Numbered from the stretch's first letter, positions 2,115 through 30,100 are shown. The stretch is 64,000 bases of DNA from an uncultured Acidobacteriota bacterium (GCA_963725095.1 CAVRXJ010000022.1:135856-199855), one strand, 5' to 3'. Notes: generated by a model not told the origin, from the sequence alone. Program-made: numbers and translations.

Positions 2115-2213
2115 TGTCATTCCGAGGCCCGCAGGCCGAGGAATCCCAGACATCTTGCGCCGTAGCGCGGGTCCTGCCGAGTTTGGGATCCCTCGCTATC
2201 GCTCGGGATGACA
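2115..2213. repeat. Palindromic ~100-bp intergenic element (REP/MITE-like), copy 1
   Basis: Left arm tgtcattccgaggcccgcaggccgaggaatccc (2115-2147). The right arm (2185-2213) reverse-complements to tgtcatcccgagcgatagcgagggatccc. It generates the spurious ORF MSFRGPQAEES... A second copy lies at 4264-4364. Confidence 0.6.
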
Positions 2214-2427
2214 ACCTCCACTCTTTTCAGAACCCTGCCACGGACTCGTCGCTTAGTCACGCTGGCGGCGCTCGTCGCGGCGCCGGTCCGACGTCGAAGG
2301 CGTCCCGACCGAGAATCGGCGCTCGGTGCGGCGGTGAGCGCGGCGGCGTTCTTTCGCCCGGCGCTCCCTCGCGGCGCGATCTTCTTTCGAGTGGCTCACC
2401 TTCCGATTGTGCGTCATCGCGGGCGCT

Positions 2428-2856: not shown

Positions 2857-2888
2857 AGTAGCCAACGGGAGGGGCGCCGGCGACGGCG

Positions 2889-3806: not shown

Positions 3807-3833
3807 GATCTAATAAGGCCTCCGGAGGTCATT

Positions 3834-4247
3834 ATGTCCCGCTCGCTTCCCCGTGACACCGCACGCGCGCTGGCGCCCATCGTCGTTCCGCTGGTCACCA
3901 AAGTCGCGCTGCCGATCTTCATCGAGAGCCTGCGCAAGCGCCGGCCCTTCGACGGCGACGCCTTCTTCGCGCAGGCGAGCGAAGGCCTGAAGAAGGGCTT
4001 CCAGAAGGCGCGTCCCGACCTCGAGGAGGTCAAGGACGAGGCCGTCGAGCGCGGCGCGCAGCTCTACGAAGACGCGCGCAAGCAGGGCGAGGAGCTCGTC
4101 GAGCTGCTGGCCGAGAAGGGCTCGAAGCTCGCGGAAGAGTGGCTGGGCGACGTGCGGCCGCGCCGCCGGCGCCGGATCCGGTGGGGCTACGTCCTCGGCG
4201 TCGTTGCCGTGATCGGCATCGGCGCGGCGATCATCGGGAGAGAGTGA
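3834..4247 (+). CDS. Hypothetical tail-anchored membrane protein
   Basis: ATG 3834 with GGAGG 5 nt upstream. Charged helical middle (EELVELLAEKGSKLAEEW) and C-terminal TM WGYVLGVVAVIGIGAAIIG. No family recognised. Confidence 0.5.
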   Translation: MSRSLPRDTARALAPIVVPLVTKVALPIFIESLRKRRPFDGDAFFAQASEGLKKGFQKARPDLEEVKDEAVERGAQLYEDARKQGEELVELLAEKGSKLAEEWLGDVRPRRRRRIRWGYVLGVVAVIGIGAAIIGRE

Positions 4248-4263
4248 CGCGCGCTCCGCGCGC

Positions 4264-4364
4264 GTCATCCCGAGCCGTCTTCGGCGAGGGATCCCGGACT
4301 ATTCCGGGGCCCGACGGATTTCGAAAAAGTCCGGGGTCCCTCGCGCCTTCGGCGACTCGGGACA
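4264..4364. repeat. Palindromic ~100-bp intergenic element (REP/MITE-like), copy 2
   Basis: gtcatcccgagccgtcttcggcgagggatccc ... ggggtccctcgcgccttcggcgactcgggacaa. Same arm consensus (GTCAT[TC]CCGAG-hairpin-GAGG[AG]ATCCC) as 2115-2213. Lies between the convergent 3' ends of 3834..4247 and ettA. Confidence 0.6.
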
Positions 4365-4375
4365 AATACAAACGG

Positions 4376-6059
<1,684 letters not shown>

Positions 6060-6073
6060 AAGAACCGCGCAGT

Positions 6074-6805
6074 CTACCCCGAAACCGGCGCCTCGCCCAG
6101 GTTGATCCCCATCGTGCCGAGCAGCCGGTTCTCGTAGCGGGCGTTCGCGAAGCCGGCCTCGCGCATCAGCTGCGCCACACCGCGCTGCGCGGGGAAGCGT
6201 TCGAGCGAGTCCGGGATGTAGAGGTAGGTCTGCGGGTCGCCGTGGAAGAGCCAGCCCATCGCCGGCATGGCGGTGCGCAGGTAGGCGCCGTAGAGGGCGC
6301 GCGCGATCGGGTTGTCGGGCTTGCCGAAATCGAGGATGACGGCGCGCCCGCCCGGCGCCAGCACGCGGCGGATTTCCGCGAGCGCCGCCGGCAGGTCCGC
6401 GACGTTGCGCAGGCCGTAGCTGACGGTGACGGCGTCGAACGAGCCCGTCGGGAAGGGGAGGCCGAGCGCGTCGGCCTGCACGAAGGCGCTGCGGCGGCCC
6501 TCCGCGGTCTTTCGGCGCCGCGCGACGGCGAGCATGGGCAGCGTGAAGTCGGCGCCCGTGACCGGCCCGGCGCCCTGCTCCTCCGCGAGAAAGCACAGGT
6601 CGCCGCTGCCGCAGCAGAGGTCGAGAACGCGCGCGCGCGCCGCGCCTCCCGACAGCGCCAGGCGGACGGTTTCCCGCTTCCAGCGCCGGTGCATCCCGAA
6701 GCTCATCAGGTCGTTGACGAGGTCGTACCGCCAGGCCAGGCGCGAGAACATCTCGCGCACCCGGGCGGCGCGCTTCTCGTCGTAGGAGAGGTACTTGTTC
6801 GGCAT
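6074..6805 (-). CDS. ubiE: Demethylmenaquinone/ubiquinone C-methyltransferase UbiE/MenG
   Basis: Intact 243 aa. UbiE-family strings [21 protein letters not shown] motif [24 protein letters not shown]. Confidence 0.9.
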
Positions 6806-6873
6806 CCGCGGGGCCTGATTATGCGACGGCGGGACGAAATGTCCCGCGATGTTGTAAGGTTTTGACGATCAGC

Positions 6874-8771
6874 ATGAGCGAACCCTCCCGCAAGCACGTC
6901 AGCGAGGCCGAGGCCCGGCAGGTGGCCGAGGAGGCGCGCGAGACCGAGTGGACGGCGCCGAGCTTCTTGAAGGAGCTCTTCCTCGGCAACTTCCGCCTCG
7001 ATCTGGTGCATCCGTTCCCGGCGGCGCCTCCCGAGCGCCCGGAGTTCCGGGCCTTCCGCGAGGCCATGACGAAGTTCCTGGCGGAGGAGGTGGACGCGGA
7101 CCGGATCGACCGCGAGGGGAAGATCCCGCCGAAGGTCATCCAGCGCCTGGCGGAGCTCGGCGCCTTCGGCATGAAGGTCCCGAAGGAGTACGGCGGTCTC
7201 GGCCTGTCGCAGCTCGAGTACGGCGAGATCATGAAGCTGCTCTCGAGCTGGGACGGCAACCTCGTCACGCTGCTCTCGGCGCACCAGTCGATCGGCGTGC
7301 CGCAGCCCCTGAAGCTCTTCGGCACGAAGGAGCAGAAGAAGAAGTACTTCCCGCGCCTGGCGAAGGGCGCGATCTCCGCCTTCGCCCTGACCGAGGCGCA
7401 GGTGGGCTCCGACCCGGCGAACCTCGCGACGACCGCGACGCGCACGCCCGAGGGCGACTACATCTTGAACGGCGAGAAGCTCTGGTGCACCAACGGCACC
7501 GTGGCCGAGCTCTACGTCGTCATGGCGAAGCACCCGGACACGAAGAAGATCTCCGCGTTCATCGTCGAGCGCGACTGGCCCGGGGTCGAGGTCGTGACGC
7601 GCTGCCACTTCATGGGGCTGCGGGCGATCGAGAACGGCGTCATCCGCTTCACGAACGTCCGCGTGCCGCGCGAGAACCTCCTGCTCGCGGAGGGGCGGGG
7701 CCTGAAGCTCGCCCTCGTGACCTTGAACACCGGCCGGCTGACGCTGCCCGCCTCCTGCGCGGCGTTTGCCAAGCGCTGCCTCGAGGTCTGCCGGGTCTGG
7801 TCGAACGAGCGCGTCCAGTGGGGCCAGCCGATCGGCAAGCACGACGCGATCGCGCAGCTGCTCGCCGAGATGGCGGCGACGACGTTCGCCATGGAAGCCG
7901 TTTCGGACCTGGCCTCCGCGATGGCCGACATGGGCGACCGCGACATCCGCCTGGAGGCGGCCGTCGCCAAGATGTGGAACTCGGAGGAGGGCTGGAAGCT
8001 CGTCGACCGCACGATGCAGATCCGCGGCGGCCGCGGCTACGAGACGGCGGATTCGCTGCGCGCGCGCGGCGAGAAGGGCGATCCCCGTCGAGCGCATGAT
8101 GCGCGATTTCCGCATCAACCTGATCTTCGAGGGCTCCTCGGAGATCATGCGCCTCTTCATCGCGCGCGAGGCGCTGGACCGGCACCTCGCCGTCGCGGGC
8201 GACCTCTTCAATCCGAAAGTCCCGACCTCCCAGAAGCTCGGGAAGGCCCTTCCGCGTTTCGTCGGCTTCTACGCGAAGTGGTATCCGTCGCGGTGGATCG
8301 GCTGGGGCCACGCGCCGCGCTTTGGCGAGTTCGGGCCGCTCGCGCCTCACGTGCGCTACCTCGAGCGCACGACGCGGCGCCTCGCGCGCGCGCTCTTCCA
8401 CATGATGGCCCGCTACGGCCCGAAGCTCGAGAAGCGGCAGGCGCTGATCTTCCGGGCCGTGGACATCGGCGCGGACCTCTTCGCCATGTCCGCCGCCGTC
8501 AGCCGCGCGCAGCAGATCCGGAAGGCCGGCAGGCCCGAAGCCGACCGCGCCGTCGAGCTCGCCGACATCTTCTGCCGGACGACCCGGCGGCGAATCGCCG
8601 CGCTCTTCTCCGGCCTGCGCTCGAACGACGACGTCGCGAAGTACCGGACCGCGCCGCCGCATCCTGGACGGCGAGCACGAATGGCTCGAGTCGGGGCTCG
8701 TTCCGTTCGATCCGGTCCGGGAGCTCTCGGAGGAGCTTCTTCCGCGGGAAGCGGTCGCCGGCCGAATCTGA
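6874..8771 (+). CDS. Long-form acyl-CoA dehydrogenase, two frameshifts (near 8070 and 8652)
   Basis: ATG 6874 (TTG 6862 also possible). ACAD strings [38 protein letters not shown], then +1 frame [24 protein letters not shown], then +1 frame [14 protein letters not shown]... to TGA 8769-8771. Confidence 0.9.
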
Positions 8772-8791
8772 ACTGACACTCCGGCCCATTC

Positions 8792-11522
8792 ATGAAACTC
8801 GGCGCGGCGGCCTTCTCCGGCGTCGTCATCCTCGCCCTGTTGGCGGCCCCGGCCGGCGCCGCGTTTTACACCGTCACGAACACCAATGACTCGGGAGCGG
8901 GGTCGCTGCGGCAGGCGATCCTGAGCGCCAACGCGGTCGCCGGGGCGACACGATCCGGTTCAGCATTCCCGGGTCCGGCGTCCATACGATTGCGCCGACC
9001 TCGGCGCTGCCGGCGATCACGAGCCCTGTCACGATCGACGGGAGCGCGCAGCTCGTCGAGATCTCCGGCGCGAGCGCTCCCGATGGCACCGACGCCCTGC
9101 GCGTCACGGGAGGCGGGAGCACGATCCGCCGCCTGACGATCAACCGCTTTCGGCAGCTCCTTTTCGGCGGCGGCGGCAATGCGATCGTGCTCGAGTCGGG
9201 AGGCGGAAACGCGGTGTTCGGCTGCATGATCGGCACCAACACCGCCGGGACCGTCGAGCTCGGCAACGGCGGAAACGGGATCGCGATCGTGGACTCCCCG
9301 AGCAACGTGATCGGCGGCGACGGTGGATCGCTTCAGAGAAACGTCATCGCCGGGGGCTTCGTGGGCGTTTTCATCAAGGGAGCGGGTTCGACCGGAAACA
9401 TCGTCAGGGGCAACCGCATCGGCCTCGGGAACTCCCTCGCGGCGGGGTTCGGGACGGCCGGCGACGGCGTCGTCCTTCGGGAGGGAAGCGGCAACCAGAT
9501 CCTCGGCAACCTGATCGGCGACAACACCGGCAACGGGATCGTGGTCAGCGTCGGGGCGACGGGGAACCTCGTTCAATCAAACGCCATCGGAGTCGAGACG
9601 GGTCCCGGCAGCGAGCCTCTCGGCAACGGCGGCGAGGGAATTCAGGTCAACGCCGCTTCCGGAAACACGATCGCCGGAAATCGGATCATCTGGAACGGCC
9701 GGAACGGAATCCTGCTCTTCAACGGCGCCAGCGGCAATCTCGTGCTGGGGAACTTCGTAGGCACCAACGAGGCGGGAACGGCGAATCTCGGCAACGCCGG
9801 CAACGGCATTCTCGTCACGGAAGGCGACGACAACCAGGTCGGGGGAATCTCGCCGGCCGACCGCAACTTCGTGTGCGGCAACGGCGCCAACGGGATCCGG
9901 CTTCGCAGCGGCAGCTCCGGAAATCTCGTTCGAGGCAATTTCGTCGGCGTAGGCCCCACCGGCGCCGCCAACGGCAACGGCGACGACGGGATCGAGATCA
10001 ACGACGGCGCCCACGACAACGTGATCGGCGGAAAGAGCGCCGGGGCGGGCAACGTCGTCTCCGGTAACGCCGTCAACGGCGTTCGGATCACGGACGCCAC
10101 GACGGCCGGAAACATCGTGCAGGGGAACTGGATCGGATCGGACGCGACCGGGTCTGCCGCGCTCGCAAACGCCGGCCACGGCATCCGAATCGAGAACGGC
10201 GCTCACGACAACAAGATCGGCGGGGCCGCCGCCGGTGGCGGCAACACGATCGCCTTCAACGGCGGCGCCGGTGTCTTCGCCGAATCCGGCGCGGGCAACG
10301 CGATCCTCGGCAACCTCATCCGCGGCAACGGCGGGCTCGGGATCGATCTCGCGCCCGAGGGCGTGACGGCGAACGACGCGGGAGACGCCGACTCGGGCGC
10401 CAACCAGCTTCAGAACTTCCCGGAACTGACGGCGGCCGCCTCGAGCGACGGCACGACGGCCGTGCAGGGAAGCTTGAGCGGCGTTCGCCGCCACGACCTT
10501 CCGGATCGAGTTCTTCGCGAGCGTCCTCTGCGACGCGTCGGGACACGGCGAAGGGCCGCTTCTTCCTCGGCGCGACGGATGTCGCGACGGACGCCGGCGG
10601 CAGCGCGGTCTTCAACGCGTGTCGTTGCCGGTCGCGGCGCGCGGCCCGTTCATCGCCGCCACGGCGACGGACGCGGCCGGAAACACGTCGGAGTTCTCGG
10701 CGTGCGTGACGGTTCCGGGACCGACGGTCTTCGAGCGTCGTCTCCGACGTCCGGCCCCGCGGCGGGCGGGACGGAAGTCACGATCACGGGCTCCGACTTC
10801 CAGGACGGCGCGGCGGCGCTCTTCGGGGGTATCGCGGGCTCGGGCTCGGTCACGGGCGGCACGACGCAGATTGCCGTGACGACGCCGGCGCTCGCTCCCG
10901 GCACGCTGAACGACGTGACCGCCGTCAACCCGAACACGCTTTCGGGGACGCCGCCCGAAGGCCTGGCTCGCGGACTTCTCCGACGTGCCACACGGATACC
11001 TCTTTCACGTCGCCGTCGAGAAAATCTTCCGCGCCGACATCACGACCGGTTGCGGGGGCGGCGAACTACTGCCCCGGCGAGCCGGTCAACCGTGCTGGCA
11101 TGGCGGTCTTTCTCCTGCGCGGCGAGCACGGCGGCGCGCACCAGCCGCCGGACGCCAAGGGAGGAGTCTTCGACGACGTTCCGCTCGGGACGTTTCTCGG
11201 GGCGTGGATCGAGGAGCTGGCGGCCGAGGAAGATCACGACCGGCTGCGGGCAGGGCAACTACTGCCCCGAGGCTCCGGTCACGCGCGCCGGGATGGCGGT
11301 CTTTCTGCTGCGCGCCAAGCACGGCGCCGACTACCATCCGCCGGCCGGCGCGGGGGACGTCTTCGACGACGTTCCGCTCGGGACGTTCCTCGGCGACTGG
11401 ATCGAGCAGCTCGCCGCGGAAGGCATCACCGCAGGCTGCGCCGCGAAGCTCTTCTGCCCGGATCAGCCCGTGACCCGCGGCGAGATGGCGGTCTTCCTGG
11501 TCCGGACGTTCGGCCTGACTGA
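8792..11522 (+). CDS. Secreted parallel beta-helix repeat protein with C-terminal IPT/TIG and three Cys-containing SLH-like repeats; at least 8 frameshifts
   Basis: Signal peptide [23 protein letters not shown]. Long run of right-handed beta-helix repeats (GNxIxGNxIG...NGxxGI). IPT-like [16 protein letters not shown]...[12 protein letters not shown]. Three repeats of F.DVP..F..WIE.LAAEGIT.GC....YCP..PVTR..MAVFL. Pieces lie in ORFs 8792, 9187, 10619, 10985, 11100. The stop is ambiguous (11516-11522). Confidence 0.75.
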
Positions 11523-11526
11523 CGCC

Positions 11527-12477
11527 CTACGCCAGCCCCGGCACCTCGTCGGTTCCCTCGTTGATCCCTTCGAAGAGGATCGTCGAGAGGTAGCGCTCGC
11601 CCGTGTCGGGCAGCATCGCCAGGAGCACGGAGCCCTTGGGCGCCTTTTCGGCGACCTTGCGCGCCGCGGCGAACGTGCCGCCGGAGGAGATCCCGCAGAA
11701 GATCCCTTCCTTGGACGCGAGGTCGCGCGCGGCGTCGCGGGCCTCGGTGTCGCTGACCGTCACGATCTCGTCGTAGACCTCGCGGGAGAGGACGGCCGGG
11801 ATGAAGTCCGGCGTCCAGCCCTGGATCTTGTGGGGCTTCCACTCGTTGCCCGTCAGGAGCGCGGCGCCTTCGGGCTCCGTCACGATGACCTTGATCTCCG
11901 GCCGGGCCTTCTTCAGCATCTCGCCGGCGCCCGTCAGCGTCCCGCCCGTGCCGTAGCCGGTGACCCAGTAGTCGAGCCTCTTGCCGGCGAAGTCGCGCAG
12001 GATCTCCGGCCCGGTCGTGTTGCGGTGGTACTCGGGGTTGGCCGGGTTCTCGAACTGCCGCGCCAGGAACCACCCGTTCTTCTTCGCGAGCTCCTCGGCC
12101 TTCTTGACCATTCCGCTGCCCCTCTCGGCCGCCGGCGTGAGGACGACCTTGGCCCCGAGGATGCGCATCAGCTTTCGCCGCTCGATCGAGAAGCTGTCCG
12201 ACATCAGGGCGACGAAGGGGTAGCCCTTCGCGGCGCAGACCATCGCGAGCGCGATCCCGGTGTTTCCCGACGTCGCCTCGACGACCGTCTGGCCCGGCTT
12301 CAGCGTGCCGCGCCGCTCCGCGTCCTCGATGATCGCGATGGCGAGCCGGTCCTTGACCGAGGAGAGCGGGTTGAAGGCCTCGCACTTGACGTAGATCGTG
12401 ACGCCCGAAGGCGAGAGCTTGTTGATCCGCACGACGGGCGTGTTGCCGATGGTTCCGAGGATGTTTTCGTGAATCAT
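11527..12477 (-). CDS. cysK: Cysteine synthase A (O-acetylserine sulfhydrylase)
   Basis: ATG at 12477 inside ORF 11527..13116. 316 aa with the PLP lysine motif [19 protein letters not shown] and GTGGT loop. Intact. Confidence 0.95.
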
Positions 12478-14146: not shown

Positions 14147-15432
14147 ATGAGCTTTCGACGCGGGCTCCAGCTGGCCGGCTTCGCCCGCCGCCACCTCGGG
14201 CGCATGGCCCGGGGCCGGCGCGAGGTGATGGCGCACCTCGCCGCGCCGCGTCCGGAAAACCTTCCCATGCCGACCTTCGTTCAGCTGCGGGTCACCAACC
14301 TCTGCAACCTGCGCTGCAAGATGTGCGGGCAGTGGGGCGATACGGGCATCTACCGCTCCGACGGGTTCTCCGCCTCGGCCACCGACGGCGAGAGCGAGCG
14401 CGACCGGATCCGGGAGCTGATCGGGTTGAACCGCCAGCTCGCGCTCTCGGACTACGTGCGTCTGCTCGACGAGATCGCGCCCTGGAAGCCGATCGTCTCG
14501 CTCTTCGGCGGCGAGCCGCTCCTCTATCCCGACATCCTGCCGCTCGTGCGCGAGGTCAAGAAGCGGGGCCTGACCTGCACGGTGATCACGAACGGAGGCC
14601 GGCTCGAGCCGTACGCGAAGGAGCTCGTCGAGGCCGGCATCGACTCGATCGCCGTCTCGATCGACGGCCCGCCCGAGGTCCACGACCGCATCCGCGGGAA
14701 AGGCGGACAGCTTCCAGAAGGCCGCGGCGGGCGTGCGGGCCGTGGCGATGTGGCGCGAGAGGCTCGGCCGGCCGGCGCCGATGCAGATCGCGATCCTGCC
14801 GGTCACGGAGCTGAACCTCGGATCGATCGCGCCCGCCGTCGAAGCGCTGCGCGAGCTGCCGCTCGACACGATCAACGTCGGCCTGCGCTGGTTCGTGCCC
14901 GAGGGAAGCGGGAGCCGAGTACGAGTCGCGTCATGCGCGAGCACGTTCGGCGTCTCGGGCGATTCCTGGAAGGGCTTCGACTTCGACTGGTCCAAGGCCG
15001 GCGCCTCGAAGACGCGGCAGATGACCGACCTCGTGAAGCTCCTCAAGGGTCTGAAGCGCCGCCGCTACCTCGACTCGGCGGCGGGGAAGCCCTGGGTCTC
15101 GTTCGTCCCCGACGTGCCCGGCCGAAAAGGTGCCCGAGTACTTCTCCGACTTCTCCCAGACCTTCGGCCACAACCTGTGCCCCGTCGCCTGGTACTTCGC
15201 CCAGGTCGAGCCCGACGGCGAGGTCTGCTTCTGCGGGGACTTTCCCGACTACTTCATCGGCAACGTGCGCAAGCAGCCGTTCCGCGACGATCTGGACGGG
15301 GGAGAAGGCCTGGAAATTCCGCGAGAAGCTCGCGAAGGAGCCCCTCCCCATCTGCGCCCGCTGCTGCGGCAACTACGTGTACGGGAAGTGGGAACGGCCG
15401 CCGCTCGCCGCGAACTCCGAGAAGCCCGATGA
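14147..15432 (+). CDS. Radical SAM/SPASM-domain protein, at least 3 frameshifts (near 14705, 15128, 15288); 3' end uncertain
   Basis: CX3CX2C motif VTNLCNLRCKMCG, GGEPLLYPD, TNGG. C-terminal Cys-rich SPASM/twitch-like region CPVAWYFAQVEPDGEVCFCGDFP..GNVRKQPFRDIWTGEKAWKFR..PICARCCG. Segments in ORFs 14147, 14733, 15130 and back to the 14147 frame, where no stop occurs. Nearest stops in other frames are at 15430-15432 and 15453-15455. Confidence 0.8.
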
Positions 15433-16365
15433 GCCAGTCGGCCCAGAACCGGTAGAAGTTGAACCACTGCGTCGGGTGGTCGCGGATCACGCGCTCGAGG
15501 TCCGCGGCGACGCGGCCCATCATGCGGGCGGCGTCTTCCTCGGGGGAGGTCGCGGGATCGGCGTCGAGGGGCTCGCCCCAGACGTTGTAGTACGCCCCGT
15601 CCGGGCGGCGCAGGAAGAAGCCCGGCAGGATCGGGCAGCCGCAGAAACGGGCGAGCAGGGCGGGGGAGCGCAGGAAGGGCGTCGGGCGGCCGAAGAACGG
15701 CACGGTCGACCTTGTCCTCCGGGTAGGCCCGGTCGACGAGCATCGCGACGGCCCGGCCGCCGTCGATCGCCGTGCGGACGCGGAAGGCGGTGGACATGGA
15801 GCTGCCGATGTCGATCGACTCGACGCCGACGCGGTCGCGCAGCTGCTGGCGCATCTCCTGAACGCGCGGCGAGAGCTCGGGCTGGCCGACGACCGCGGGC
15901 GTCAGGCCGTGGCGGCGCAGCGTCACGGCGCCCATCTCCCAGTTGCCGACGTGGCCGGTGACGAGGAGGAATCCCCTCCCGCCGCGCCGGGCGCGGTCCA
16001 GGACACGGGCGTCCGCGTCGAAGGTCTCGATCCGGGGCGTGAAGGCCTCGCCCCGGAGCCGCCACGTGTCGATGGTGTGCCGGCCGTACTCGAAGAAGAC
16101 CCGGCGCACGGTCCTTTCCGCCTCGTCCTCCGAAAGGCCCAGGGCCTTCCGGAAGTTGTCCCGCATCCCCGCTTTCGTCTTCGGAAAGAAAGGTCACGGC
16201 GAGCGAGTTGCCGACCAGGTTGACGCCGTTCAGAACGGCCATCGGAAGCCACCGCCCGCCGTAGTGGAGACCCCCGTAGACGACGCGGTTGGAGAGGCCG
16301 TGGCTCACCCATTTCGTGCGCGCGCGCAGGGCGTGCCTATCGGACATCGCAGCGGGACTATACAA
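15373..16365 (-). CDS. Lysophospholipid (LpxL/HtrB-type lauroyl/myristoyl) acyltransferase family protein, two frameshifts; 3' end uncertain
   Basis: Three collinear pieces: MSDRHALRARTKWVSHG... (ORF 15520..16365); FLLVTGHVGNWEMGA (HX4-type acyltransferase motif) and AMLVDRAYPE (ORF 15249..16166); FFGRPTPFLRSPALLA...DHPTQWFNFYRFW (ORF 15254..15703). The family normally ends shortly after the QWF.F.RFW string (~15440). The formal stop of that frame is only at 15254. Confidence 0.75.
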
Positions 16366-16376
16366 TTCGGGTGGGA

Positions 16377-17825
16377 ATGAACGTTCTCCTCGTCCGCCCC
16401 GACCCGGGCAACGAACGCTTCGGCCTGGGACCCTTCTTTCGGGTGGAGCCGCTCGGCCTCGAGTACATCGGGCAGGCCCTGCGCGAGCGCGGGCACCTGC
16501 CGACGATCGCGGATCTGCGCTTCGGCCGCGGCCTCGCCTCCTGGATCCGCCGCACGCGGCCCCGCGTCGTCGGGATCTCCGGGATGCACGCGCTCGAATA
16601 CGACCGGATGCTCGAGACCGCGCGGGAGATCCGCCGGATCTGTCCCGAGGCCTTCATCGTGGTGGGCGGCCACGCCGCCGCGGCCTACTCGGCGCCGCTC
16701 GAGCGCGACGAGGTGGACGCGATCTGCGTCGACGACGGGGAGGAGGTCGTTCCGGCGCTGGCGGACGCGCTCGCGGCCGGCCGGTCCCCCTCCACCGTGC
16801 CCGCCCTGCGCCTGCGCACGCCGCGACGGCTGGATCTCGACCGCGCCGCTCTCCGAGCGCACGGGCCTCGACCGCGTCCCCCGTGCCGGCGCGCGATCTC
16901 GTCGAGCGCTACCGCAACCGCTACCACTGCCTGCTCTTCAAGCCCGTCTGGCTGATCGAGACGGCCCGCGGCTGTCCCTTCCGCTGCAACTTCTGCTCGG
17001 TGTGGCAGCTCTACGACCGCTCCTTCCGCGAGCGGTCGATCGGGGCCGTCGTCGACGACTTCGCGTCGGTCGGCGACAGCGTCTTCGTCGCCGACGACCT
17101 CTTCTGGAACCACCCGGCGCGCAGCCTCGAGCTCGCGCGAGGCCCTGAAGAAGCGCGGCGTGCGCAAGCGGTGGCTGCTCGTGCAGACCCGCACGGACCT
17201 CGTGTGCCGGCATCCGGACCTGCTCGAGGCCTGGCGCCCGCTCGCGAAGGACTTCGACATCTTCTTCGGCCTCGAGTCGGCCTCCGACGCGGGCCTGGCG
17301 AGCGTCGTGAAGGACGCCCGCATCTCCTCGAGCGTCGAGGCTGCGCGCCTCTCGCGCTCGCTCGGCTACGGGGTCACGGGCAACTTCCTCGTCGATCCCG
17401 ACTGGTCCGAGGGGGAGTTCCGCGAGCTCTGGGACTTCGTCGCGCGCCACGGCTTCGAGCGCGCCGGCTACACGATCCTGACGCCGCTGCCCGGCACCGA
17501 CCTCTACCGCAAGCTCGCGCCCGCGCTCGCCGGCCAGCCCTGGTTCAAGTACGACATGCACCACGTCCTCTGGGAGCCGCGCCTGGGCGCGAAGCGCTTC
17601 TTCGAGCTGTACGCGGAGACCTGGCGCCGGTCGATCCTGAACACGAGCGGCCAGAAGAGCTGGCTCGACTGGATGCGGCAGATCCGGCCCGCGCAGATCC
17701 CGTACCTGACGCGCGTGCTCTGGCGCACGCAGCGGATGATGAACGCCGAGGCCTACCTCAAGGAGCACGGGGCCTGTGCGGTCGAGCCGGCGCGCCTGCC
17801 CGGCCGGGTCCTGGAGGCTTCGTAG
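16377..17825 (+). CDS. B12-binding-domain radical SAM protein, three frameshifts (near 16822, 16877, 17138)
   Basis: N-terminal cobalamin-binding-type Rossmann region (VVGISGMHALEYDRMLETAREIRRICPEAFIVVGGHAA). Radical SAM motif ETARGCPFRCNFCSV. C-terminal FGLESASD...LTPLPGTDLY...WFKYDMHHVLWEP. Head-to-head with the acyltransferase gene (starts 12-30 bp apart). Confidence 0.85.
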
Positions 17826-17866
17826 ACCACCCGGCGCTCGATTCCGCCCTTCCTCGCTTCGACGTC

Positions 17867-18406
17867 GTGAAACGCCACGCGCTGCCGGTCGCGGCGTCCG
17901 CCGCGCGCGTGTGGGAGGCGCTCCAGCATCACGAGTTCGCGTCCTCGGGGCTCGGGAGGCTTCTGATGACGGTGCGCGGCTACGGCCGGCGGGCGACGCA
18001 GAGCCGGGGAGCCGGGACGTTCTCCGAGAGGATCGAGCGCTTCGGCTTCGTCAAGCTCGCCGAGGTCCCCGGGCGCGAGCTCGTGTTCGGCCTGGCGGGC
18101 CGCTTCTGGAGGCCGGACGGAGGCTTGCGGCGCCTGACGCGGGAGGAGTTTCTCGCCTTCGCCGAGGAAGGCTCGGTGAAGGCCGCCTGGAACCTGCGGG
18201 TGACCGAGACCGCGGCGGGGCAGAGCGAGGTCTCGACGGAGACGCGCGTGCTCGCGTTCGGCGCGGCGGCCCGGCGCAAGTTTCGGATCTACTGGACGGT
18301 CATCGAGTCGTTCTCCGGGCTGACGCGCCGCGCCATGCTGCGCGGGATCCGCCGCGCGGCGCTCGAGGGCGGGGGAGGGATGCCGGAAAAGAGGAGGGAA
18401 GAATGA
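17867..18406 (+). CDS. Hypothetical protein (SRPBCC/DUF2867-like guess); start uncertain
   Basis: Tail of ORF 16289..18406 after the stop of the B12-rSAM gene: RFDVVKRHALPVAASAARVWEAL...FGLAGRFWRPDGG...RRKFRIYWTVIESFSGLTRRAML. The first in-frame GTG is at 17867, but conserved-looking residues begin ~17850, so a start or frame problem is possible. Confidence 0.5.
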   Translation: MKRHALPVAASAARVWEALQHHEFASSGLGRLLMTVRGYGRRATQSRGAGTFSERIERFGFVKLAEVPGRELVFGLAGRFWRPDGGLRRLTREEFLAFAEEGSVKAAWNLRVTETAAGQSEVSTETRVLAFGAAARRKFRIYWTVIESFSGLTRRAMLRGIRRAALEGGGGMPEKRREE

Positions 18407-18879
18407 CATTGCTCGGAATCGGTCTCGGTCTCGTCCTGCTGGCGGCGCCGCCGCCGGCGGCGCCGGCTGCCGAAGGCGCCGTGGCGTCGGTGCTGGACGG
18501 CTGGCACGCCGCTGCGGCCGCCGCCGACGAGGAACGGTACTTCGCGTACTTCACGCCCGACGCCGTCTTCCTCGGGACCGACGCCACCGAGCGGTGGACG
18601 CGGGACGAGTTTCGCAAGTACGCGCATCCCTACTTCGCCAAGGGCAAGGCCTGGAGCTTCAAGTCCGTGGCGCGCCACGTCGCCTTTTCGCCGGACGGGA
18701 AGGTCGCGTGGTTCGACGAGGACCTCGCCACACCGAACCTCGGCCCGTGCCGCGGGTCCGGCGTGCTGCTGCTGCAGAACGGGCAGTGGAAGATCGCGCA
18801 GTACAACCTGTCGGTGCCGATCCCCAACGACCTGATGGATCAGGTCAAGGCGCTGATCGAGAAGGGGGCGAAGAAGTAG
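18403..18879 (+). CDS. NTF2-like (SnoaL/DUF4440-type) secreted protein
   Basis: ATG 18403 overlaps the upstream TGA (ATGA), with GAGGAGGG upstream. Signal MTLLGIGLGLVLLAAPPPAAPAAEG. Then VLDGWHAAAAAADEERYFAYFTPDAVFLGTDATERW..., typical of the NTF2-like fold. Confidence 0.75.
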   Translation: MTLLGIGLGLVLLAAPPPAAPAAEGAVASVLDGWHAAAAAADEERYFAYFTPDAVFLGTDATERWTRDEFRKYAHPYFAKGKAWSFKSVARHVAFSPDGKVAWFDEDLATPNLGPCRGSGVLLLQNGQWKIAQYNLSVPIPNDLMDQVKALIEKGAKK

Positions 18880-19950: not shown

Positions 19951-22900
19951 TCAGGGCAGGCTGAAGGTTCGGGAGAGGAAGACCGCCATCTCGCCCCGGG
20001 TCACCAGGCCGTCGGGGCAGTACTGGCCGCCGCCGCAGCCGCTGGTGATGCCCTCGCGGGAGAGCTCCTCGATCCAGTCTCCGAGGTAGGTTCCGAGCGG
20101 AACGTCGGTGAAGAGGTCGCCCGTCGCCGCGGGCGGATGGTAGCCGGCGGGATGCTTGGCCCGAAGGAGGAAGACGGCCATCGACGCGCGGCTGACGAGC
20201 GCGTCGGGACAATACTCCGTCGCGCTGCAGCCGCTCGTGATGCCTTCGCGGGCGAGCTCTTCGATCCAGGCGCCGAGGTAGGTTCCCAGCGGCACGTCGG
20301 TAAAGAGGTCACCCGTCGCGGCCGGCGGATGATAGCTTCCGCCGTTCTTTCCCCGCAGCAGGAAGACCGCCATGCTCGACCGGTTCACCTGGTCGGCCGG
20401 GCAGTAGTTTCCGAGGCTGCATCCAGAAGTGATCCCGGCCCGGAAGATCTTCTCGATCGCCTTATGGTACGGATGGGGAGTCGGCACGTCGGAAAAATCC
20501 GCCATGTACGCGCGCAGCAGCTCGCCGCTCTGTCCGTCGGGGTTGCTCGTCACGACGTCGTTGAGCGTTCCGGGCGGCAGGGGAGGAGCCACCGCCGAGA
20601 TCGCGGTCGGACCCGAGACGACCACGTCGCCCGCAGGCACGCCGCCAATCAAGACGGTGGCGCCGGCTTCGAAGTTGTCACCGGTGGCCGTGATCGTCAT
20701 CGCTCCGGAGGCGGGCCCCGAGGTCGGCACGATCGCGGCCAATTCGGGTGCGCAGAGCACGACAGTCGTTCCAGCAACCGCCGTGTTGTTGGACGCGCCC
20801 GGGTCGCTCGTCGCAGCCGACACGGAGACCGCCGCGGTGACCGAACCCTCGTTGGCCGGCGCCGTTGCGGAGAGGACGATGGCCGGCGCGTCTCCCACGT
20901 CGAGGCTCATGCGCGAGCAAGTGACGGGGGTTGAGCCAGCGCAGCTCCACCCGTCTCCGGAAGATGACAGCAGCGAGGCGCCTGCGGGAAGAGTTGCCGT
21001 CACCGACACGGACGACGCCACGGTCGGCCCCGCATTGTGAGCCGTCAGTGTGTACGTCAGACTACCTCCGGCACAGGCTTCCGACGGCGAGGGCCCTGCG
21101 GAGATCGAGAGGTCCGCCGCGCGGTACGTGGCTCCGTACGTCGCCGGAGACGCGCCCGCCACGATTCCGTGGCTCGCCGTGCCGCCGTCGGACCAGAAGG
21201 CGAACCCGTAGGGAATCCCGCCCAGGCGTCTGCGTCGGTGAGGCTTGGATTGTCACCTCGGAGCCGACGATGACGGTCTGGACGAACGGCGTCGTGCCCC
21301 CCCCGGTGGCCACAGTCAGCGGCATTCCGGACGGGTTCGATTGGAAGGTCAGCAACACGGTCTGCGGGTTGAGCGCCACGGTCTTGGTGTGCGTGAGACC
21401 GTTCGAGTTGATCGCCGTCAGCTTCAGCTCGAGGGAGGACGGGTACTCGTGGTCGGGCGCCGAGAACGATCCGCTGGCGACTCCTGGAAATGTCTGAACG
21501 GTATGGGTGTGGCAGTTGGCCGGGCAGTGCCGGATGAGGAGCGTCCACGACAGGGCGGAGGCGGGCAGGGTGCCATCCTGCGGGTCCGTCGCATGGCCCG
21601 AAAAGGTGATCGTGTCCCCGACTTTCCAGATGAGGGTCGGCGAGGGCGAGTCGATCGTCGCGGTCGGGGAGACGCCGCCGACGACGACCGTCAGCGGGTC
21701 GCTCACCGCCGATACGCCGTGATTGTCGGTCACACGGAGCGCGCGCCGTGTGAGAGCCGGGCTGCGTGTAGACGAAGGTCGGACTGATCAGCGTCGAGTC
21801 TTGGTAGGTCCCTTCATCCTCGAAGTCCCAGGCATATGTGATCGTGTCGCCGGGCCGCGCGGCGTGGGACCCGGAACCGTTGAACTGCACCGTGAGCGGG
21901 GCCGATCCGGAAAGGGGAGCCGCCGTCGCCATGGCCGTGGGCGCAAAGCTCTGGACGCGCCGGATCGTGCCTCCGCCGTGGTCTGCATAATACAGGTCAC
22001 CGCCCGGCCCAATCTGCAGGTCAACGGGCGTCGCGGCCCCGGCGATGAAGGTTGCGCGGGTCGACGGCACCGGCTTGCCCTGCGCGTCGGGAAACATGAC
22101 CCAGATGCACTGGCGCGAATAGTCGCCAAAAAACAGTGCCCCTTCGTAGCTCGCCGGGTAGCTGCCCGTACCGTAGAAAGCAAGGCCGGAAATCGACGAG
22201 CTACCTGTCGGACAGGTCTCGCCGGAGACGACCTTGCTGGTGTGCGCGTACTTGTAAGACGGGCTTATGACCCCGCTGGATGAGTTGTAGAGGTTGTTGC
22301 AGAGCGAGAGGTTGGCCGCCTGGTAGCCGGCCTGCGGGGCGGCGCCCTCGTAACACGGCCAGCCGAAGTTCGCCACCGGCGAACCGGTCGGATTGGCGAG
22401 CTGATTGATCTCTTCCCACGAGCCCCAGCCCACGTCGCCGATCCAGAGTGATCCGGTTCCCGGTTGTATCGTGAAGCGGAACGGATTGCGCAGGCCGTAC
22501 GCCACGACGCGCTGCGCGATCGGGTCGGTGCTGCGCAAAGAGCGGGTTGTCCGGAAGGGCATTGCCGTTGCCGTCCACGCGCAGGATGGCGCCATTGGTC
22601 AGGACCGGGCCGCCGGCGGCGCGCAGAAGGCTCTGGCTGCGCAGCGAACCTCCTTCGGCATCGGGCGATGCCAGCGGAGTTCCGACGGGCAGGGGCGGGT
22701 CTCCCAGGGGATTCTTGGGAATGCCGAACTGCCCGTAGTCCACGTTGTTGAAGCTGGAGCCATCGCCTCCGCTGACGTAGAGGGAACCATCGGGCCCGAA
22801 GTGCAGGTCGCCGATCGAGTGGCTGGGGAACTGCTGGCCCCAGGCTTCGAGGAGGACCTCCTCCACGCCGGTCATCACGCTTCCGGCGGCGGTCAGGCGC

Positions 22901-27192: not shown

Positions 27193-30100
27193 TCACGGCA
27201 GGGAGAATGTCCTCGCCAGAAAGGCCGCCATTTCGCCCCGCGTGGTCGTCTTGTTCGGACAGAAATCGCCGCCCCCGCATCCCACCGGTGATGCCTTCGT
27301 GCAGCAGCTGCTCGATCCAGCGCGCGAATGGGTCGCTCGCCGGCACGTCATCGAAGAGCCCGACGGCGGCCGGCGGCTGGTAGCTGCCGCCGTGCTTGGC
27401 GCGCAGGAGCATCACCGCCATCGAGGCGCGGTTGACCACGGCGCCGGGCAGTAGTTGCCCATCCCGCAACCGGTGGTGATCTGTTCCGTCAGGAGCTGCT
27501 CGATCCACGGCGCCCCGAAGGCGTCGGCGGCGACGTCGCCGAAAGCCGTTCCGGTCGCCGGCGGCGGGCGCGAACGACGACCCGTGCTTTCCCCGCAGCA
27601 GGAAGATCGCCATCTGGTCCCGCGTGACCGCCGCGTCCGGGCAGTAGCTTCCGGCGTTGCAGCCCGTGGTGATCCCCGCGCGGAAGATCTTCTCGACGGC
27701 GTTGTGGAAGAGCTGGCTCGGCGGGACGTCCAGAAAATCCGCCATCCACGCCTTGGGGAGCGTTCCGCCGCAGGCGTCGGGGTTGCCGACGACGACGTCG
27801 TTGAGAGTCCCGGGAGAGAGCGCGGGCGTCGTCGCCGTGATCTGTGTCTCGCCGGGCACCGCGACGCTGCCGGCGTCGGCGCCGCCGATCGCGAGCGTCG
27901 CGCCGGTCTGGAAATCCTTGCCGGCGATCGTCACGGCGGTTCCTCCGGCGGCGGGGCCCGAGCGCGGCGAGATGGAAGCGGGAGCGGGCAGCACGATCGC
28001 GAACGCCGTGACGAATGCGTCCGTCGTTCCGCCGAGCGTGTCGTCGGCGGGATCGGCGGTCGGGAAATCGCTCGAGCTCGTTTGCCCGGCGACGAAGTCG
28101 TTGCCCGCTCCGTCGAGCGCGACGCCGTACGCCGCGTCGGTGCCGGCGCCTCCGAGGTAACTCGCGAACGAAAGGCCGGCCGGTCCCGGGATCGGAGGGG
28201 CGGATCATCGCGAAGAAGGCGTCGTAGCCGCCGCCGCTGCCGGGCTGCAGCGGACAGGTGCGCTGCGGGAAATCGCCGGAGACGGTGAACCCGGAGACGT
28301 GGGCGACGCCCTGCGCGTCGAGCGCGAGGCCGAAGCCCTCGTCGTCGTTCGAGCCGCCGAGGTACGTCGCGTAGAAGAGCGCCGCTGCCCCGGCCAGGTC
28401 CGGGTCGATCCTCGCGAAGTGGGCGTCGAAGACGCCGCCGAACGTGCGCTGGACGGCGTCGGGCGTCGTCGCGAGCGCGTCGGAGCTCGTCGTGCCGATG
28501 ACCGCGAGCTTGCCGTCCCCCTCCGCGAGGATCGTGTAGCCGTCGTCGTAGCCGGCCCCGCCGAGGTAGCTCGAGAGGAGCAGGCCCGATCCCGCGGCGT
28601 CGAAGAGCGAGACGAAGCCGTCGTAGCCGCCGCCCGTCTCCTCCTGGAACGGGCTCTCCGTCGGAAAGTCGGTCGAGGCCGTCCGCCCGGTCACCGCGAG
28701 GACGCCGCCCGGGCCCCGTGCGATGCCGAACCCCTGATCGTCGCCGCTTCCGCCGAGGAAGGTCGAGAAGACGAGGGACGCCGCGCCGGACTTCGACGTG
28801 TCCAGGCGCGCGAGGAAGGCGTCGCTCGACGGCGTCGCAGGCGCCGTCGGTGCCGCAGGATTCGTCGAGGACGCCGGCCGTGCTCGGGAAATCCGCCGAG
28901 TAGGTCTGGCCGGTGATCCAGGCGTTGCCGGAGTCGTCCACGGCGACGGCCCAGGCGCCGTCGCCGTTGGAGCCGCCGAAGTAGGTCGCGTAGAGGAGCG
29001 ACGAGCCGTCGGCGCCGAGCTTGGCGAGGAAGCCGTCGGCGCCGATGCCCGCCGCCGAGCCGAACGCGGTCTGGTAGGCGCCGGCGGTGGTCGGAAATTC
29101 CGCGCGGGCGATCCCCGCGACGTAGGCGACGCCCGCGCCGTCGACGGCGATGCCGACGCCCACGTCGTCCCCGGTTCCGCCGAGGTAGGTCGCGTAGACG
29201 AGGGATTCGGCACCGGTCTGCGACGGATCGATCTTGGCGACGAAGGCGTCGCTCGCCGCGCTGTCGCAGTTGCCGTCGGAGCCGCAGTCCGCGTCGATCG
29301 GACCGACCGTCGGAAAGTCCGTCGAGAGCGTCGAACCCGGTCACGTAGGCCTTGCCGGAGGCGTCGGCCGCGATCGCGTAGGCGATGTCGTCGCCGCCGC
29401 CGCCGAGGTAGGTCGATTCGAAGATCCGCGTGTCCACGAGCAGGGCGCGCGCGATGAGTCGTAGCCCCGGGGAAATGTGAGGCCGATGCTCCCGTCGGCG
29501 TGGACGGCGCGGCGCGCCATCCTCCGCGAGCTCCGATCTCCCGCGCCTTCCTGCCAGGCCTCGGGCTCGCCTGCCGCCGCTTCGGGTCGCGTTTTCGCGC
29601 TCCGGTCGCGCAGGCGCCATCGGATCAGCGACGGGTCGACTCCGGGCGCGACGACGAAAGTGCTCCGGATCGTTCCGCCGGCGCTCTCCAAGCGCAGGTC
29701 GATTCCGGGATAGAGCCCGCGGTAGAGGAGCCCGCGATAGGCGGGCAGCCCCGAACGCCAGCGTGCCGGATTGCTGCCGCGCAGGTAGCTGATCTTCGCG
29801 GCGATCGGATCGATTCCGGATACGGCCGGGTCCGGCTGCGCGCCTTCGAAGGAAATCGCGCCCAACCGAAACGGCCTCGCGTGCGGGCCTGCCTCGAGAC
29901 GTCGAGCCGCGTCCCGCTCGCCGGGGCGGAAAGGGCCGGCGTCGCCGCGCGCGGCGTCATCCAGATGATCTGCCCGGACGTGAAGAGCACCGTGCGCCCG
30001 GCGATCGCCGCCTGGAAGCGGATGTCCGGCCCGTCTGTCCGGCGTTGGGAACGAAGAAGGCCGGGATCTTCGCGGCGTTCTCAGCCGGCGCGAAGGTCCC

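Follow-up and report, generated by a model that had tools for sequence, protein, structure and literature searches.

A conserved acyltransferase and HpnR-like radical SAM gene pair as a candidate envelope-lipid tailoring module in an uncultured Acidobacteriota bacterium

Five genes lie between positions 14147 and 18879 of the window, the whole 64-kb stretch of DNA that was analyzed from an uncultured soil Acidobacteriota bacterium. A radical SAM enzyme with a SPASM domain (14147..~15455, plus strand) is encoded tail-to-tail with an acyltransferase of the LpxL/LPLAT family (Pfam Lip_A_acyltrans; ~15440..16347, minus strand). The acyltransferase in turn stands head-to-head with a radical SAM enzyme carrying a cobalamin-binding domain (B12-rSAM; 16377..17825, plus strand), the two start codons being separated by a 29-nt divergent spacer (16348..16376). 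Two small plus-strand genes follow, one for a protein with an SRPBCC-like fold (~17834..18406; no Pfam match, fold model) and one for a SnoaL_3/NTF2-like protein (18403..18879; Pfam), which overlap in an ATGA at 18403-18406. Direct reading, together with Pfam searches on frame-repaired translations, agreed with the initial annotation on the five genes, their order, orientation and domains, including the convergent and divergent arrangements and the ATGA overlap. Intergenic gaps are 64, 29 and 76 bp, and genes otherwise overlap, at two junctions.

In this sequence, frame breaks interrupt all three enzyme genes. We mapped the breaks against locus L083, the closest relative in which the three are intact (88–91% nucleotide identity), and found 11 one-base insertions and no deletions. 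Six lie in the SPASM enzyme gene (about 14699, 14897, 14928, 14941, 15120 and 15288), two in the acyltransferase gene (about 15707 and 16184) and three in the B12-rSAM gene (about 16823, 16889 and 17138). Because the essential genes mraY, ftsA and mfd show the same type of break elsewhere in the window, and the L083 genes are intact, we read all 11 as assembly errors and not as marks of pseudogenes. For the convergent genes, this sequence does not allow the 3′ ends to be located, and there is no in-frame stop near the expected end of the SPASM enzyme gene.

The B12-rSAM, 481–482 residues long after repair, comprises a B12-binding domain (PF02310, 51.1 bits) and a Radical_SAM domain (PF04055, 37.1 bits), and its CPFRCNFC motif (CxxxCxxC) is invariant in the ortholog alignment. 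The repaired protein is 95% identical to P0001 over 100% of the length. By far its closest curated family in NCBIfam is HpnR (TIGR04367), followed by BchE at 101 bits; residues 19–465 align end to end with positions 16–461 of the 490 in the HpnR model. The profile check proposed in the initial annotation nevertheless gave 227.5 bits against an equivalog cut-off of 650. Ten more distant relatives likewise score 200–343 bits, all below 650, and the next relatives outside the clade, at 31–44% identity, also fall short of the HpnR cut-off. Judged by these profile scores, the B12-rSAM is a member of an HpnR-like class B family but not HpnR itself. Hopanoid genes were recognized neither in the window nor in the 8–10 kb flanks of related loci, and SD23, the only cultured member of Thermoanaerobaculia, lacks shc, hpnCDE and hpnR (PMC5462960). 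Some members of the family carry the IMG label "hopanoid C-3 methylase", which is probably an over-annotation. The nearest solved structure is 9ccb (E = 1.3e-13), the B12-dependent glutamine C-methyltransferase MgmA/QCMT (PMC11796369).

The acyltransferase (~306 residues, start ATG at 16347-16345; intact ortholog at 3681-4601 in L083) matches Lip_A_acyltrans (PF03279) at 98 bits, against a cut-off of 22.3. It has a hydrophobic N-terminal segment and the motif GHVGNWE, an HX4E-type sequence matching the catalytic HX4(D/E). All NCBIfam equivalogs for LpxL, PIM and lysophospholipid acyltransferases are missed 3–10 fold: the best match, NF005120, reaches 78.3 bits (cut-off 273) and the PIM acyltransferase model 68.1 bits (cut-off 209). 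The protein is as far from the PIM and lysophospholipid acyltransferase models as from LpxL/LpxM. In the spacer between the acyltransferase and the B12-rSAM, a TACAAT hexamer at 16361-16366, 10 nt ahead of the B12-rSAM ATG, occupies the same site in 25/25 orthologous loci, with variable bases around it. A full sigma-70 consensus was not found in the spacer, and the conserved hexamer is probably a -10 region shared by two short-leader or leaderless transcripts.

The SPASM enzyme (~420–430 residues after repair, motif CNLRCKMC) matches Radical_SAM at 83.9 bits and SPASM (PF13186) at 50.1 bits, against a cut-off of 21.5. Its orthologs, 415–440 residues long and 75–90% identical across Thermoanaerobaculia, are restricted to the Thermoanaerobaculia-type clade; the SPASM enzymes of the NC10 and Geobacter clusters described below are not among them. 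The full SPASM form has seven cysteines. In an alignment of 37 orthologs only five cysteines of the C-terminal domain are invariant (C343, C361, C401, C404 and C405), so that a single auxiliary cluster, not a pair, may be bound in this family. The best NCBIfam matches are cofactor enzymes (tungsten cofactor maturase, NirJ and AhbD), all below cut-offs, and the Foldseek neighbors are generic SPASM/twitch proteins, including PqqE, SkfB, CteB and SuiB. Identification as the tetraether synthase Tes, for which a profile check had also been proposed, was rejected: Pfam shows only Radical_SAM and SPASM, without the HMPTM/Tes zinc ribbon, and its 25 top-scoring NCBIfam families do not include Tes (NF045702, cut-off 450). 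No PDB sequence match to GDGT-MAS was obtained, and the GDGT-MAS structure 7tol comes only at rank 22 in Foldseek (TMq 0.36).

The SRPBCC-like protein, ~185 residues in relatives, has no Pfam or NCBIfam match at E ≤ 0.01. It has 411 homologs; of the 120 listed, none is a named protein and none carries a precomputed Pfam domain. Its gene has no canonical start codon upstream of the well-modelled first strand. The AlphaFold2 model (pLDDT 86.7, pTM 0.81) runs beta-alpha-alpha-beta(x6)-long alpha, the order of a helix-grip fold. Its top PDB matches in Foldseek are SRPBCC, Bet v 1, ZhuI and CoxG proteins, and almost all of the 50 best are SRPBCC at a probability of about 1, with TM-scores of only 0.3–0.5. 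The label "SRPBCC-like" thus holds for the fold and finds no counterpart in a sequence match to a member family. The initial annotation had described the last gene product as NTF2-like with a signal peptide; this protein of 158 residues does contain a SnoaL_3 domain (PF13474, 109.9 bits, cut-off 22), and its hydrophobic N-terminus is a putative signal peptide. The SnoaL gene follows the SRPBCC-like gene within ~0.5 kb in eight loci, adjoins the B12-rSAM gene in one and is 3.5–7 kb away in five others; it is linked to the cassette only loosely. In two loci (L064 and L067) a paralogous B12-rSAM gene is followed by a paralogous SRPBCC-like gene.

We then compared gene order in related genomes, all 47 ortholog-level genome matches being MAGs. 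The acyltransferase lies within about 325 bp of the B12-rSAM in 25/25 Thermoanaerobaculia-type loci with upstream flank (tblastn), and direct reading of the 25 loci places the two 29–35 bp apart. Comparison of the window with eight more distant loci shows about equal conservation (74–91%) of the B12-rSAM, the acyltransferase and the SPASM enzyme. The unrelated cysK and M64 genes, too, keep their synteny in Thermoanaerobaculia, so that adjacency inside this class is a weak argument for counting the SPASM, SRPBCC-like and SnoaL genes as part of the module.

Beyond the class, B12-rSAM orthologs of 54–72% identity lie close to an acyltransferase homolog in NC10, Vicinamibacterales, Geobacteraceae and a further Acidobacterium ("ACB1"). 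In NC10 (2/2 loci) and "ACB1" the acyltransferase gene directly follows that of the B12-rSAM on the same strand; it is found 3.2 kb upstream in 10/13 Vicinamibacterales loci and shares an operon with the B12-rSAM in one Geobacteraceae locus (L022). The NC10 ortholog is 72% identical to the window enzyme, and in both NC10 loci (L019 and L039) the pair is adjacent to a gene for a Tes-family tetraether synthase that passes the NCBIfam equivalog cut-off (474.9 bits, cut-off 450). The other NC10 neighbors are LolA, a SPASM radical SAM enzyme, a second B12-rSAM, an ATP-grasp protein and an alpha/beta hydrolase. These genes share one strand, are separated by at most 30 nt and form an apparent operon. 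Neighbors in Vicinamibacterales include a DUF2062/methyltransferase, YdjM, a GT2, an MMPL/RND exporter, a LolA-like protein, a FabF-like KS and an SDR; those in Geobacteraceae are PagL, a GT2 and a DUF3473 deacetylase. Lack of co-localization with the acyltransferase in other genomes had been named in advance as speaking against the proposal, and it was found in at least four loci with both flanks of at least 5 kb: one in Syntrophobacteraceae (L024), one in Myxococcota (L043) and two in Vicinamibacterales (L041 and L045). Two further Myxococcota loci were uninformative and are excluded from this count. The association of B12-rSAM and acyltransferase is nonetheless real and extends beyond local synteny, given its presence in every Thermoanaerobaculia-type locus with upstream flank and its rearranged orders in other lineages. 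We conclude that the divergent acyltransferase/B12-rSAM pair is the conserved core of the locus.

The pair recurs in lipid clusters of other phyla, once beside Tes, and so is a candidate for membrane lipid tail modification. With moderate confidence, we interpret the region as an envelope-lipid tailoring module built around the divergent acyltransferase and the HpnR-like B12-rSAM, a module whose substrate and chemistry we infer. The lipid-tail tailoring suggested by the initial annotation is supported in part, by the B12-rSAM/acyltransferase link and by the lipid-gene neighbors elsewhere; the SPASM enzyme does not resemble Tes, and the B12-rSAM falls short of HpnR. Speaking against a lipid module, no gene for an ACP, KS, Tes, Mss-like or ether-lipid enzyme was recognized in the window. 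The B12-rSAM would generate a 5′-deoxyadenosyl radical from SAM and, with methylcobalamin, add an alkyl group to an unactivated carbon in the alkyl chain of a lipid, most likely by C-methylation; class B radical SAM enzymes also catalyze non-methylation reactions, for example ring formation, contraction and dehydration. The acyltransferase would attach, or re-attach, the modified acyl chain to an anchor in the membrane, which would be a lipid A-like glycolipid or a lysolipid. For the other three proteins we infer that the SRPBCC-like protein could bind a hydrophobic substrate or product and keep it available to the cytoplasmic enzymes, that the clade-specific SPASM/twitch enzyme could carry out a second radical step, and that the putatively secreted SnoaL-like protein would be at most peripheral. 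Tightly conserved and uncharacterized, the acyltransferase/B12-rSAM pair is a good candidate for a modifier of membrane lipid tails.

These genes may instead be coincidental neighbors, an unlikely reading in which the acyltransferase is an ordinary lipid A secondary acyltransferase in an LpxL/LpxM role and the radical SAM enzymes serve an unrelated pathway, for instance cofactor, tetrapyrrole or small-molecule modification. The acyltransferase does belong to PF03279, with lipid A lauroyl acyltransferases as its best NCBIfam matches, and the cofactor enzymes matched by the SPASM protein and the BchE match of the B12-rSAM point the same way, but these NCBIfam matches fall 4–8 fold below cut-offs. 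Synteny also extends to the housekeeping gene cysK, and several B12-rSAM orthologs have no acyltransferase nearby. Coincidence would nevertheless have to account for a pairing that recurs in three gene orders and four lineages, each time among lipid genes, and for two start codons flanking a 29-bp spacer with an invariant motif.

It is improbable that the cassette methylates or cross-links the long iso-branched chains of membrane-spanning lipids (iso-diabolic acid/brGDGT type) in anaerobic Acidobacteriota. The apparent NC10 operon, with its Tes-family enzyme, is consistent with such a function. Tes and Mss are missing from most iso-diabolic acid-producing Acidobacteria (PMC13159169), no enzyme is named for the C5/C6 methylation of brGDGTs in the literature that we found (PMC10087280, PMC13274423, PMC13459092), and methylation of tetraether chains by a B12-rSAM has a precedent in Gmm (PMC11214058). 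Against this, the SPASM enzyme is unlike Tes, and Tes was found neither in the window nor within 8–10 kb of any Thermoanaerobaculia-type locus. The suggested comparison with cultured organisms that make iso-diabolic acid or brGDGTs (Solibacter usitatus, Koribacter versatilis, Luteitalea pratensis and Thermoanaerobaculum aquaticum) yielded no B12-rSAM ortholog from these four among the best 80 genome matches, and our literature search found no paper naming both Thermoanaerobaculia and brGDGTs. As a long shot, the B12-rSAM and the acyltransferase, with the SPASM enzyme and an SRPBCC-like carrier, could provide a missing tailoring step of bacterial long-chain or membrane-spanning lipids. This step would be the mid-chain C-methylation that defines penta- and hexamethylated brGDGTs or, alternatively, another route of tail coupling in anaerobic Acidobacteriota without Tes and Mss.

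Peptide maturation is very improbable, in line with the initial annotation, which had thought it the less likely reading. In a RiPP pathway, the SPASM enzyme and a B12-dependent C-methyltransferase would tailor a ribosomal peptide, and the adjoining M64 peptidase would be the protease. Both enzyme types are frequent in RiPP clusters, and PqqE, SkfB, CteB and SuiB figure among the structural neighbors of the SPASM enzyme; weak NCBIfam matches to WgkB, StsB, ApyD and rSAM_ocin_1 (46–69 bits), however, lie 4–14 fold under cut-offs. Gaps of at most 76 bp and overlaps at two junctions leave no room for a precursor gene; none was found in the gaps of the cassette, and none is conserved in related loci, even in relatives with toxin-antitoxin pairs or large genes between the SPASM enzyme and the acyltransferase. 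Across phyla the partner of the B12-rSAM is an acyltransferase among lipid genes, neither a peptide nor a peptidase.

That the cassette is decaying and dead in this organism is scarcely credible: eleven frame-disrupting insertions do fall within 3.2 kb, but each is a +1 event, mraY, ftsA and mfd are broken in the same way, and the repaired proteins are 95–97% identical to intact orthologs, with no stops or other damage.

The tailoring module that we favor has partial counterparts in several known systems. With the late acyltransferases LpxL/LpxM, the window acyltransferase shares PF03279, the HX4E-type motif, a hydrophobic N-terminal segment and a similar length, although it scores below every equivalog cut-off. 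Coupling of lipid tails is catalyzed by Tes/GDGT-MAS and Mss, radical SAM enzymes that carry auxiliary clusters; the SPASM enzyme of the window is not Tes-like. In aryl polyene (APE) clusters, the part for attachment and export consists of the ApeD acyltransferase, the ApeJ GT, the LolA-like ApeL, the RND protein ApeM, the KS proteins ApeO/R and the KR ApeQ (PMC8253772). The same set surrounds the Vicinamibacterales B12-rSAM orthologs (LPLAT-type acyltransferase, GT2, MMPL/RND exporter, LolA-like protein, KS and SDR), whereas the window has the acyltransferase alone. Descriptions of APE clusters do not include a B12-rSAM, and aryl-starter genes were not seen here. Gmm (GMGT methylase) and GrsA/B are B12-binding radical SAM enzymes that tailor archaeal tetraether chains (PMC11214058, PMC13459092), a likeness drawn from published descriptions. 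They cluster with other radical SAM lipid enzymes, as the NC10 relatives of the window B12-rSAM adjoin Tes; they differ in being archaeal, whereas the window B12-rSAM has bacterial hosts and an ester-type acyltransferase as its partner. The hopanoid C-3 methylase HpnR differs in its surroundings, the conserved partner of the window B12-rSAM being an acyltransferase and not hopanoid genes, but it has the same two-domain architecture and a similar length, and its substrate is a membrane lipid that it methylates at an unactivated carbon.

Pfam searches of frame-repaired translations recovered the five genes of the initial annotation at 14147–18879, in the order it gave, within a window of ~70% G+C. 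They encode a radical SAM enzyme with a SPASM domain (SPASM rSAM; Radical_SAM + SPASM, plus strand, 14147..~15455), an LpxL-family acyltransferase (AT; Lip_A_acyltrans, minus strand, ~15440..16347), a radical SAM enzyme with a cobalamin-binding domain (B12-rSAM; B12-binding + Radical_SAM, plus strand, 16377..17825), an SRPBCC-like protein with no Pfam family (plus strand, ~17834..18406) and a SnoaL_3 protein (plus strand, 18403..18879; its ATG overlaps the TGA of the preceding gene). The best-supported reading is that the AT/B12-rSAM pair would form the core of an envelope-lipid tailoring module. For the lipid-tailoring cassette originally proposed, this core is well supported; the membership of SPASM rSAM and SnoaL, and a role in tail coupling, are not.

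In the window sequence, all three enzyme genes have interrupted reading frames. Alignment to L083, the closest intact relative (a JGI metagenome contig with 88–91% nucleotide identity to the window), identified 11 single-base insertions and no deletions: six in SPASM rSAM, two in AT and three in B12-rSAM. Not all 11 lie in homopolymers, over the stretch comparable with the intact relative, and their removal yields proteins 95–97% identical to intact orthologs. A GC3 frame plot revealed the same stepwise frame drift throughout the window, and frame shifts, mostly +1 steps, recur every 0.4–1 kb, for example in mfd (42678–45846), mraY (54728–55841) and ftsA (61738–62940), whose stitched fragments each gave one colinear Pfam alignment over the frame junctions. 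Because these essential genes are broken in the same way and cannot all be dead, the frame breaks are assembly errors, and we rejected the possibility that the cassette consists of pseudogenes. The pattern looks like that of an unpolished long-read assembly; 'MFD' MAGs (metagenome-assembled genomes) with long contigs are the source of many of the related loci. ORF-based annotation of this record, of any kind, will come out fragmented. The 3' ends of SPASM rSAM and AT could not be placed, as neither gene has a stop at the expected place in its frame. In the window (15380–15470), ~38 nt separate the last conserved residues of these convergent genes, versus ~60 nt in the related locus L002, and stop codons are absent from all three minus-strand frames across this interval, at the AT end. 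We conclude that the two 3' ends overlap or are corrupted.

Gene neighbourhoods were scanned in one genome per GTDB species, keeping the best 80 loci with B12-rSAM homologues and mapping cassette genes by tblastn. AT lies immediately upstream of B12-rSAM, and divergent from it, in all 25 Thermoanaerobaculia-type loci (B12-rSAM identity of at least 74%) that have an upstream flank. This junction is nowhere interrupted, unlike that between SPASM rSAM and AT: SPASM rSAM is directly past AT in 17 such loci, lies 2–9 kb off in three owing to inserted genes, and was not seen in L007 and L017, which have a long upstream flank, nor in three loci with a short one. Between the two genes, L083 carries ParE/Phd and MazE/PIN toxin-antitoxin pairs (2328–3684) and L001 carries two large genes, for a 1314-aa surface protein and an M4 peptidase (1251–8948). 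The SRPBCC-like gene is found less than 1 kb downstream in 22 Thermoanaerobaculia-type loci; the SnoaL gene is ~0.5 kb or less 3' of it in eight loci, next to B12-rSAM in one and 3.5–7 kb off in five. Since cysK and the M64 peptidase gene are likewise syntenic with the cassette, adjacency inside the class is, on its own, weak evidence.

A complete dcw cluster, read by eye (48026–63999; mraZ, rsmH, ftsL, ftsI, murE, murF, mraY, murD, ftsW, murG, murC, ftsQ, ftsA, ftsZ) and confirmed with Pfam for mraY and ftsA only, places the cassette in ordinary core chromosome. At 8777–11556, 19951–21162 and 27275–29461 the window encodes several secreted repeat proteins of large size, of NosD-like beta-helix and TIG/PKD-like types. 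Their ends carry repeated segments resembling S-layer homology (SLH) domains ('...MAVFLLR.KHG...PP...FDDVP...'), and their relatives in L001 and L002 gave faint or weak SLH matches only.

By direct reading, the start codons of AT and B12-rSAM are 29–35 bp apart (16348–16376 in the window). Within this spacer the hexamer TACAAT is invariant, 8–13 nt 5' of the B12-rSAM ATG, in 25 of 25 loci (L001–L018, L023, L025, L026, L044, L047, L049 and L083) and in the window, while the surrounding bases vary. A promoter scan found neither a full sigma-70 consensus nor a -35 element, and a terminator scan gave no more terminator-like sites than expected by chance. The conservation of the hexamer suggests a shared -10 region that may drive two leaderless or short-leader transcripts. 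Neither the Rfam nor the tRNA scan of the window returned a match, and the cassette thus has no cobalamin riboswitch.

B12-rSAM orthologs with 54–72% identity occur in NC10, Geobacteraceae and other Deltaproteobacteria, Syntrophobacteraceae, Myxococcota, Vicinamibacterales and the 'ACB1' Acidobacterium, and their association with AT outside the class is stronger evidence than synteny inside Thermoanaerobaculia. Co-localisation with AT in other genomes, as the initial annotation envisaged, holds in part. In NC10 (L019, 8001–17386; L039), an apparent nine-gene operon includes, in this order, B12-rSAM, AT, a Tes-family radical SAM, LolA, a SPASM rSAM, a second B12-rSAM, an ATP-grasp protein and an alpha/beta hydrolase. 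In 10 of 13 Vicinamibacterales loci, B12-rSAM faces MMPL/RND, GT2, AT, YdjM and DUF2062/methyltransferase genes, and after it come genes for a LolA-like protein, a FabF-like KS and an SDR; the conserved cluster centred on the ortholog in Vicinamibacterales MAGs (L029–L037, L042, L046; ~1600–12300) also includes a DUF3473 deacetylase. A Geobacteraceae locus (L022) carries, on one strand, a DUF3473 deacetylase, GT2, SPASM rSAM, AT, an unknown gene, a B12-rSAM paralog and the B12-rSAM ortholog, and AT (62% identity) comes after B12-rSAM in ACB1 (L050). AT is absent for at least 5 kb either side of the ortholog in L024, L043, L041 and L045, and five more loci have flanks too short to be informative. 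Another Geobacteraceae locus, L020, has a PagL gene near the ortholog.

The SRPBCC-like protein has 411 homologs, most of 183–185 aa, and none of the 120 listed carries a name or a Pfam domain. Its AlphaFold2 model (pLDDT 86.7, pTM 0.81) has helix-grip topology, and its Foldseek matches in the PDB are almost all SRPBCC proteins (ZhuI, PR-10/Bet v 1, CoxG, norcoclaurine synthase, PYR/PYL, Ups1), with a probability of ~1 and TM-scores of only 0.3–0.5; it is therefore SRPBCC-like in fold and a new family in sequence. The first strand (FDVVKRHAL; pLDDT 97) is encoded straight after the B12-rSAM stop, in the -1 frame, and no ATG, GTG or TTG lies between the two in the window (17825–17870) or in the error-free L083 (6076–6160). 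The internal starts chosen by gene callers would truncate the fold; the missing start could be explained by non-canonical initiation or by translational coupling of some kind.

The closest curated family to B12-rSAM is HpnR, the hopanoid C-3 methylase, and its nearest solved structure (9ccb, E 1.3e-13) is the B12-dependent glutamine C-methyltransferase MgmA/QCMT (PMC11796369); together these suggest C-methylation of an unactivated lipid-chain carbon. Within the proposed module, B12-rSAM would methylate such a carbon, AT would place the chain onto a membrane anchor, with the SRPBCC-like protein perhaps holding the hydrophobic ligand. Methylation is not the only reaction that class B radical SAM enzymes carry out (PMC13459092).

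A link of the cassette to membrane-spanning lipids is plausible given the adjacent Tes gene in the NC10 operon, but its probability is low: tblastn at E ≤1e-6 found no Tes-like gene in either the window or the Thermoanaerobaculia-type loci, no B12-rSAM ortholog from cultured brGDGT or iso-diabolic acid producers was among the best 80 genome matches, and all 47 ortholog-level matches are MAGs. Most iso-diabolic acid-making Acidobacteria lack both Tes and Mss (PMC13159169), and neither PMC10087280 nor PMC13274423 names an enzyme that methylates brGDGTs at C5/C6. The NC10 Tes-family protein passes the cut-off of the Tes model (474.9 bits against 450) and has the HMPTM zinc ribbon. The NC10 cluster is by itself a candidate bacterial membrane-spanning lipid cluster. 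SPASM rSAM of the window belongs to a clade-restricted family as tight as that of B12-rSAM. It was rejected as Tes-like, as it has neither the zinc ribbon nor a PDB sequence match to GDGT-MAS, which ranked 22 in Foldseek (TMq 0.36). Its structure model (pLDDT 74.4) resembles generic SPASM/twitch enzymes (PqqE, SkfB, BlsE, DesII, CteB, SuiB, anSME, MoaA), and it has only five invariant C-terminal cysteines. In the NC10 and Geobacter clusters, the SPASM rSAMs are only 24–26% identical to it, and only within the radical SAM core; they are analogues and not orthologs.

HpnR, which the initial annotation put forward for checking, is the nearest NCBIfam model to B12-rSAM and aligns end-to-end, but at 227.5 bits against a cut-off of 650; AT and SPASM rSAM fall well under every equivalog cut-off. 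None of 10 more distant B12-rSAM relatives tested reached the HpnR cut-off. The cultured strain SD23 lacks shc, hpnCDE and hpnR (PMC5462960), which makes hopanoids unlikely substrates, and we rejected B12-rSAM as a genuine HpnR. More than 120 cluster representatives match the repaired protein at 78–95% identity; nearly all are 481 aa long and, where named, they are labelled Thermoanaerobaculia or Acidobacteriota. The family ends sharply, the next full-length relatives being at 44%, 39% and then 31–36% identity in a library clustered at 50%. Members including P0003, P0013, P0018 and P0025 carry a 'hopanoid C-3 methylase' label in IMG/JGI at about one third of the HpnR cut-off, probably an over-annotation that could lead biomarker gene surveys to overcount hpnR. 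A second, paralogous B12-rSAM family (36–42% identity; L048, L051–L082) is widespread in Thermoanaerobaculia, Holophagae and 'Multivoradales'; its 33 loci had no conserved neighbours and were uninformative. A paralog of the SRPBCC-like gene directly follows the B12-rSAM paralog in two of them (L064, 9609–9944; L067, 9414–9899). A RiPP cluster, already considered less likely at the outset, was rejected for want of both space for a precursor gene and a conserved precursor.

The cassette, whose lipid-tailoring function is unproven, merits experimental follow-up. On land, branched GDGTs are in wide use as a palaeothermometer and pH proxy; in the reviews and papers to 2026 consulted here, the methylation that defines the proxy has no named enzyme and the producers are described as poorly constrained. 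In abundant, uncultured Acidobacteriota of soil and sediment, conservation of the HpnR-like B12-rSAM family is very strong. Its pairing with an acyltransferase, together with the apparent NC10 operon that holds a Tes-family synthase, provides a concrete gene set for expression and testing. If the product is another envelope lipid, class B radical SAM enzymes would gain a new class of substrate, and defining it would correct the automated 'hopanoid C-3 methylase' labels, which could mislead surveys of biomarker genes. A review from 2026 on radical SAM enzymes that modify lipids covers Tes, Mss, Gms, GrsA/B, Gmm, Cds, HpnH/J/P/R, Jaw5 and ladderane candidates (PMC13459092); it includes neither the B12-rSAM family nor its pairing with AT. 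The Vicinamibacterales clusters match that half of aryl polyene clusters which serves attachment and export (PMC8253772).
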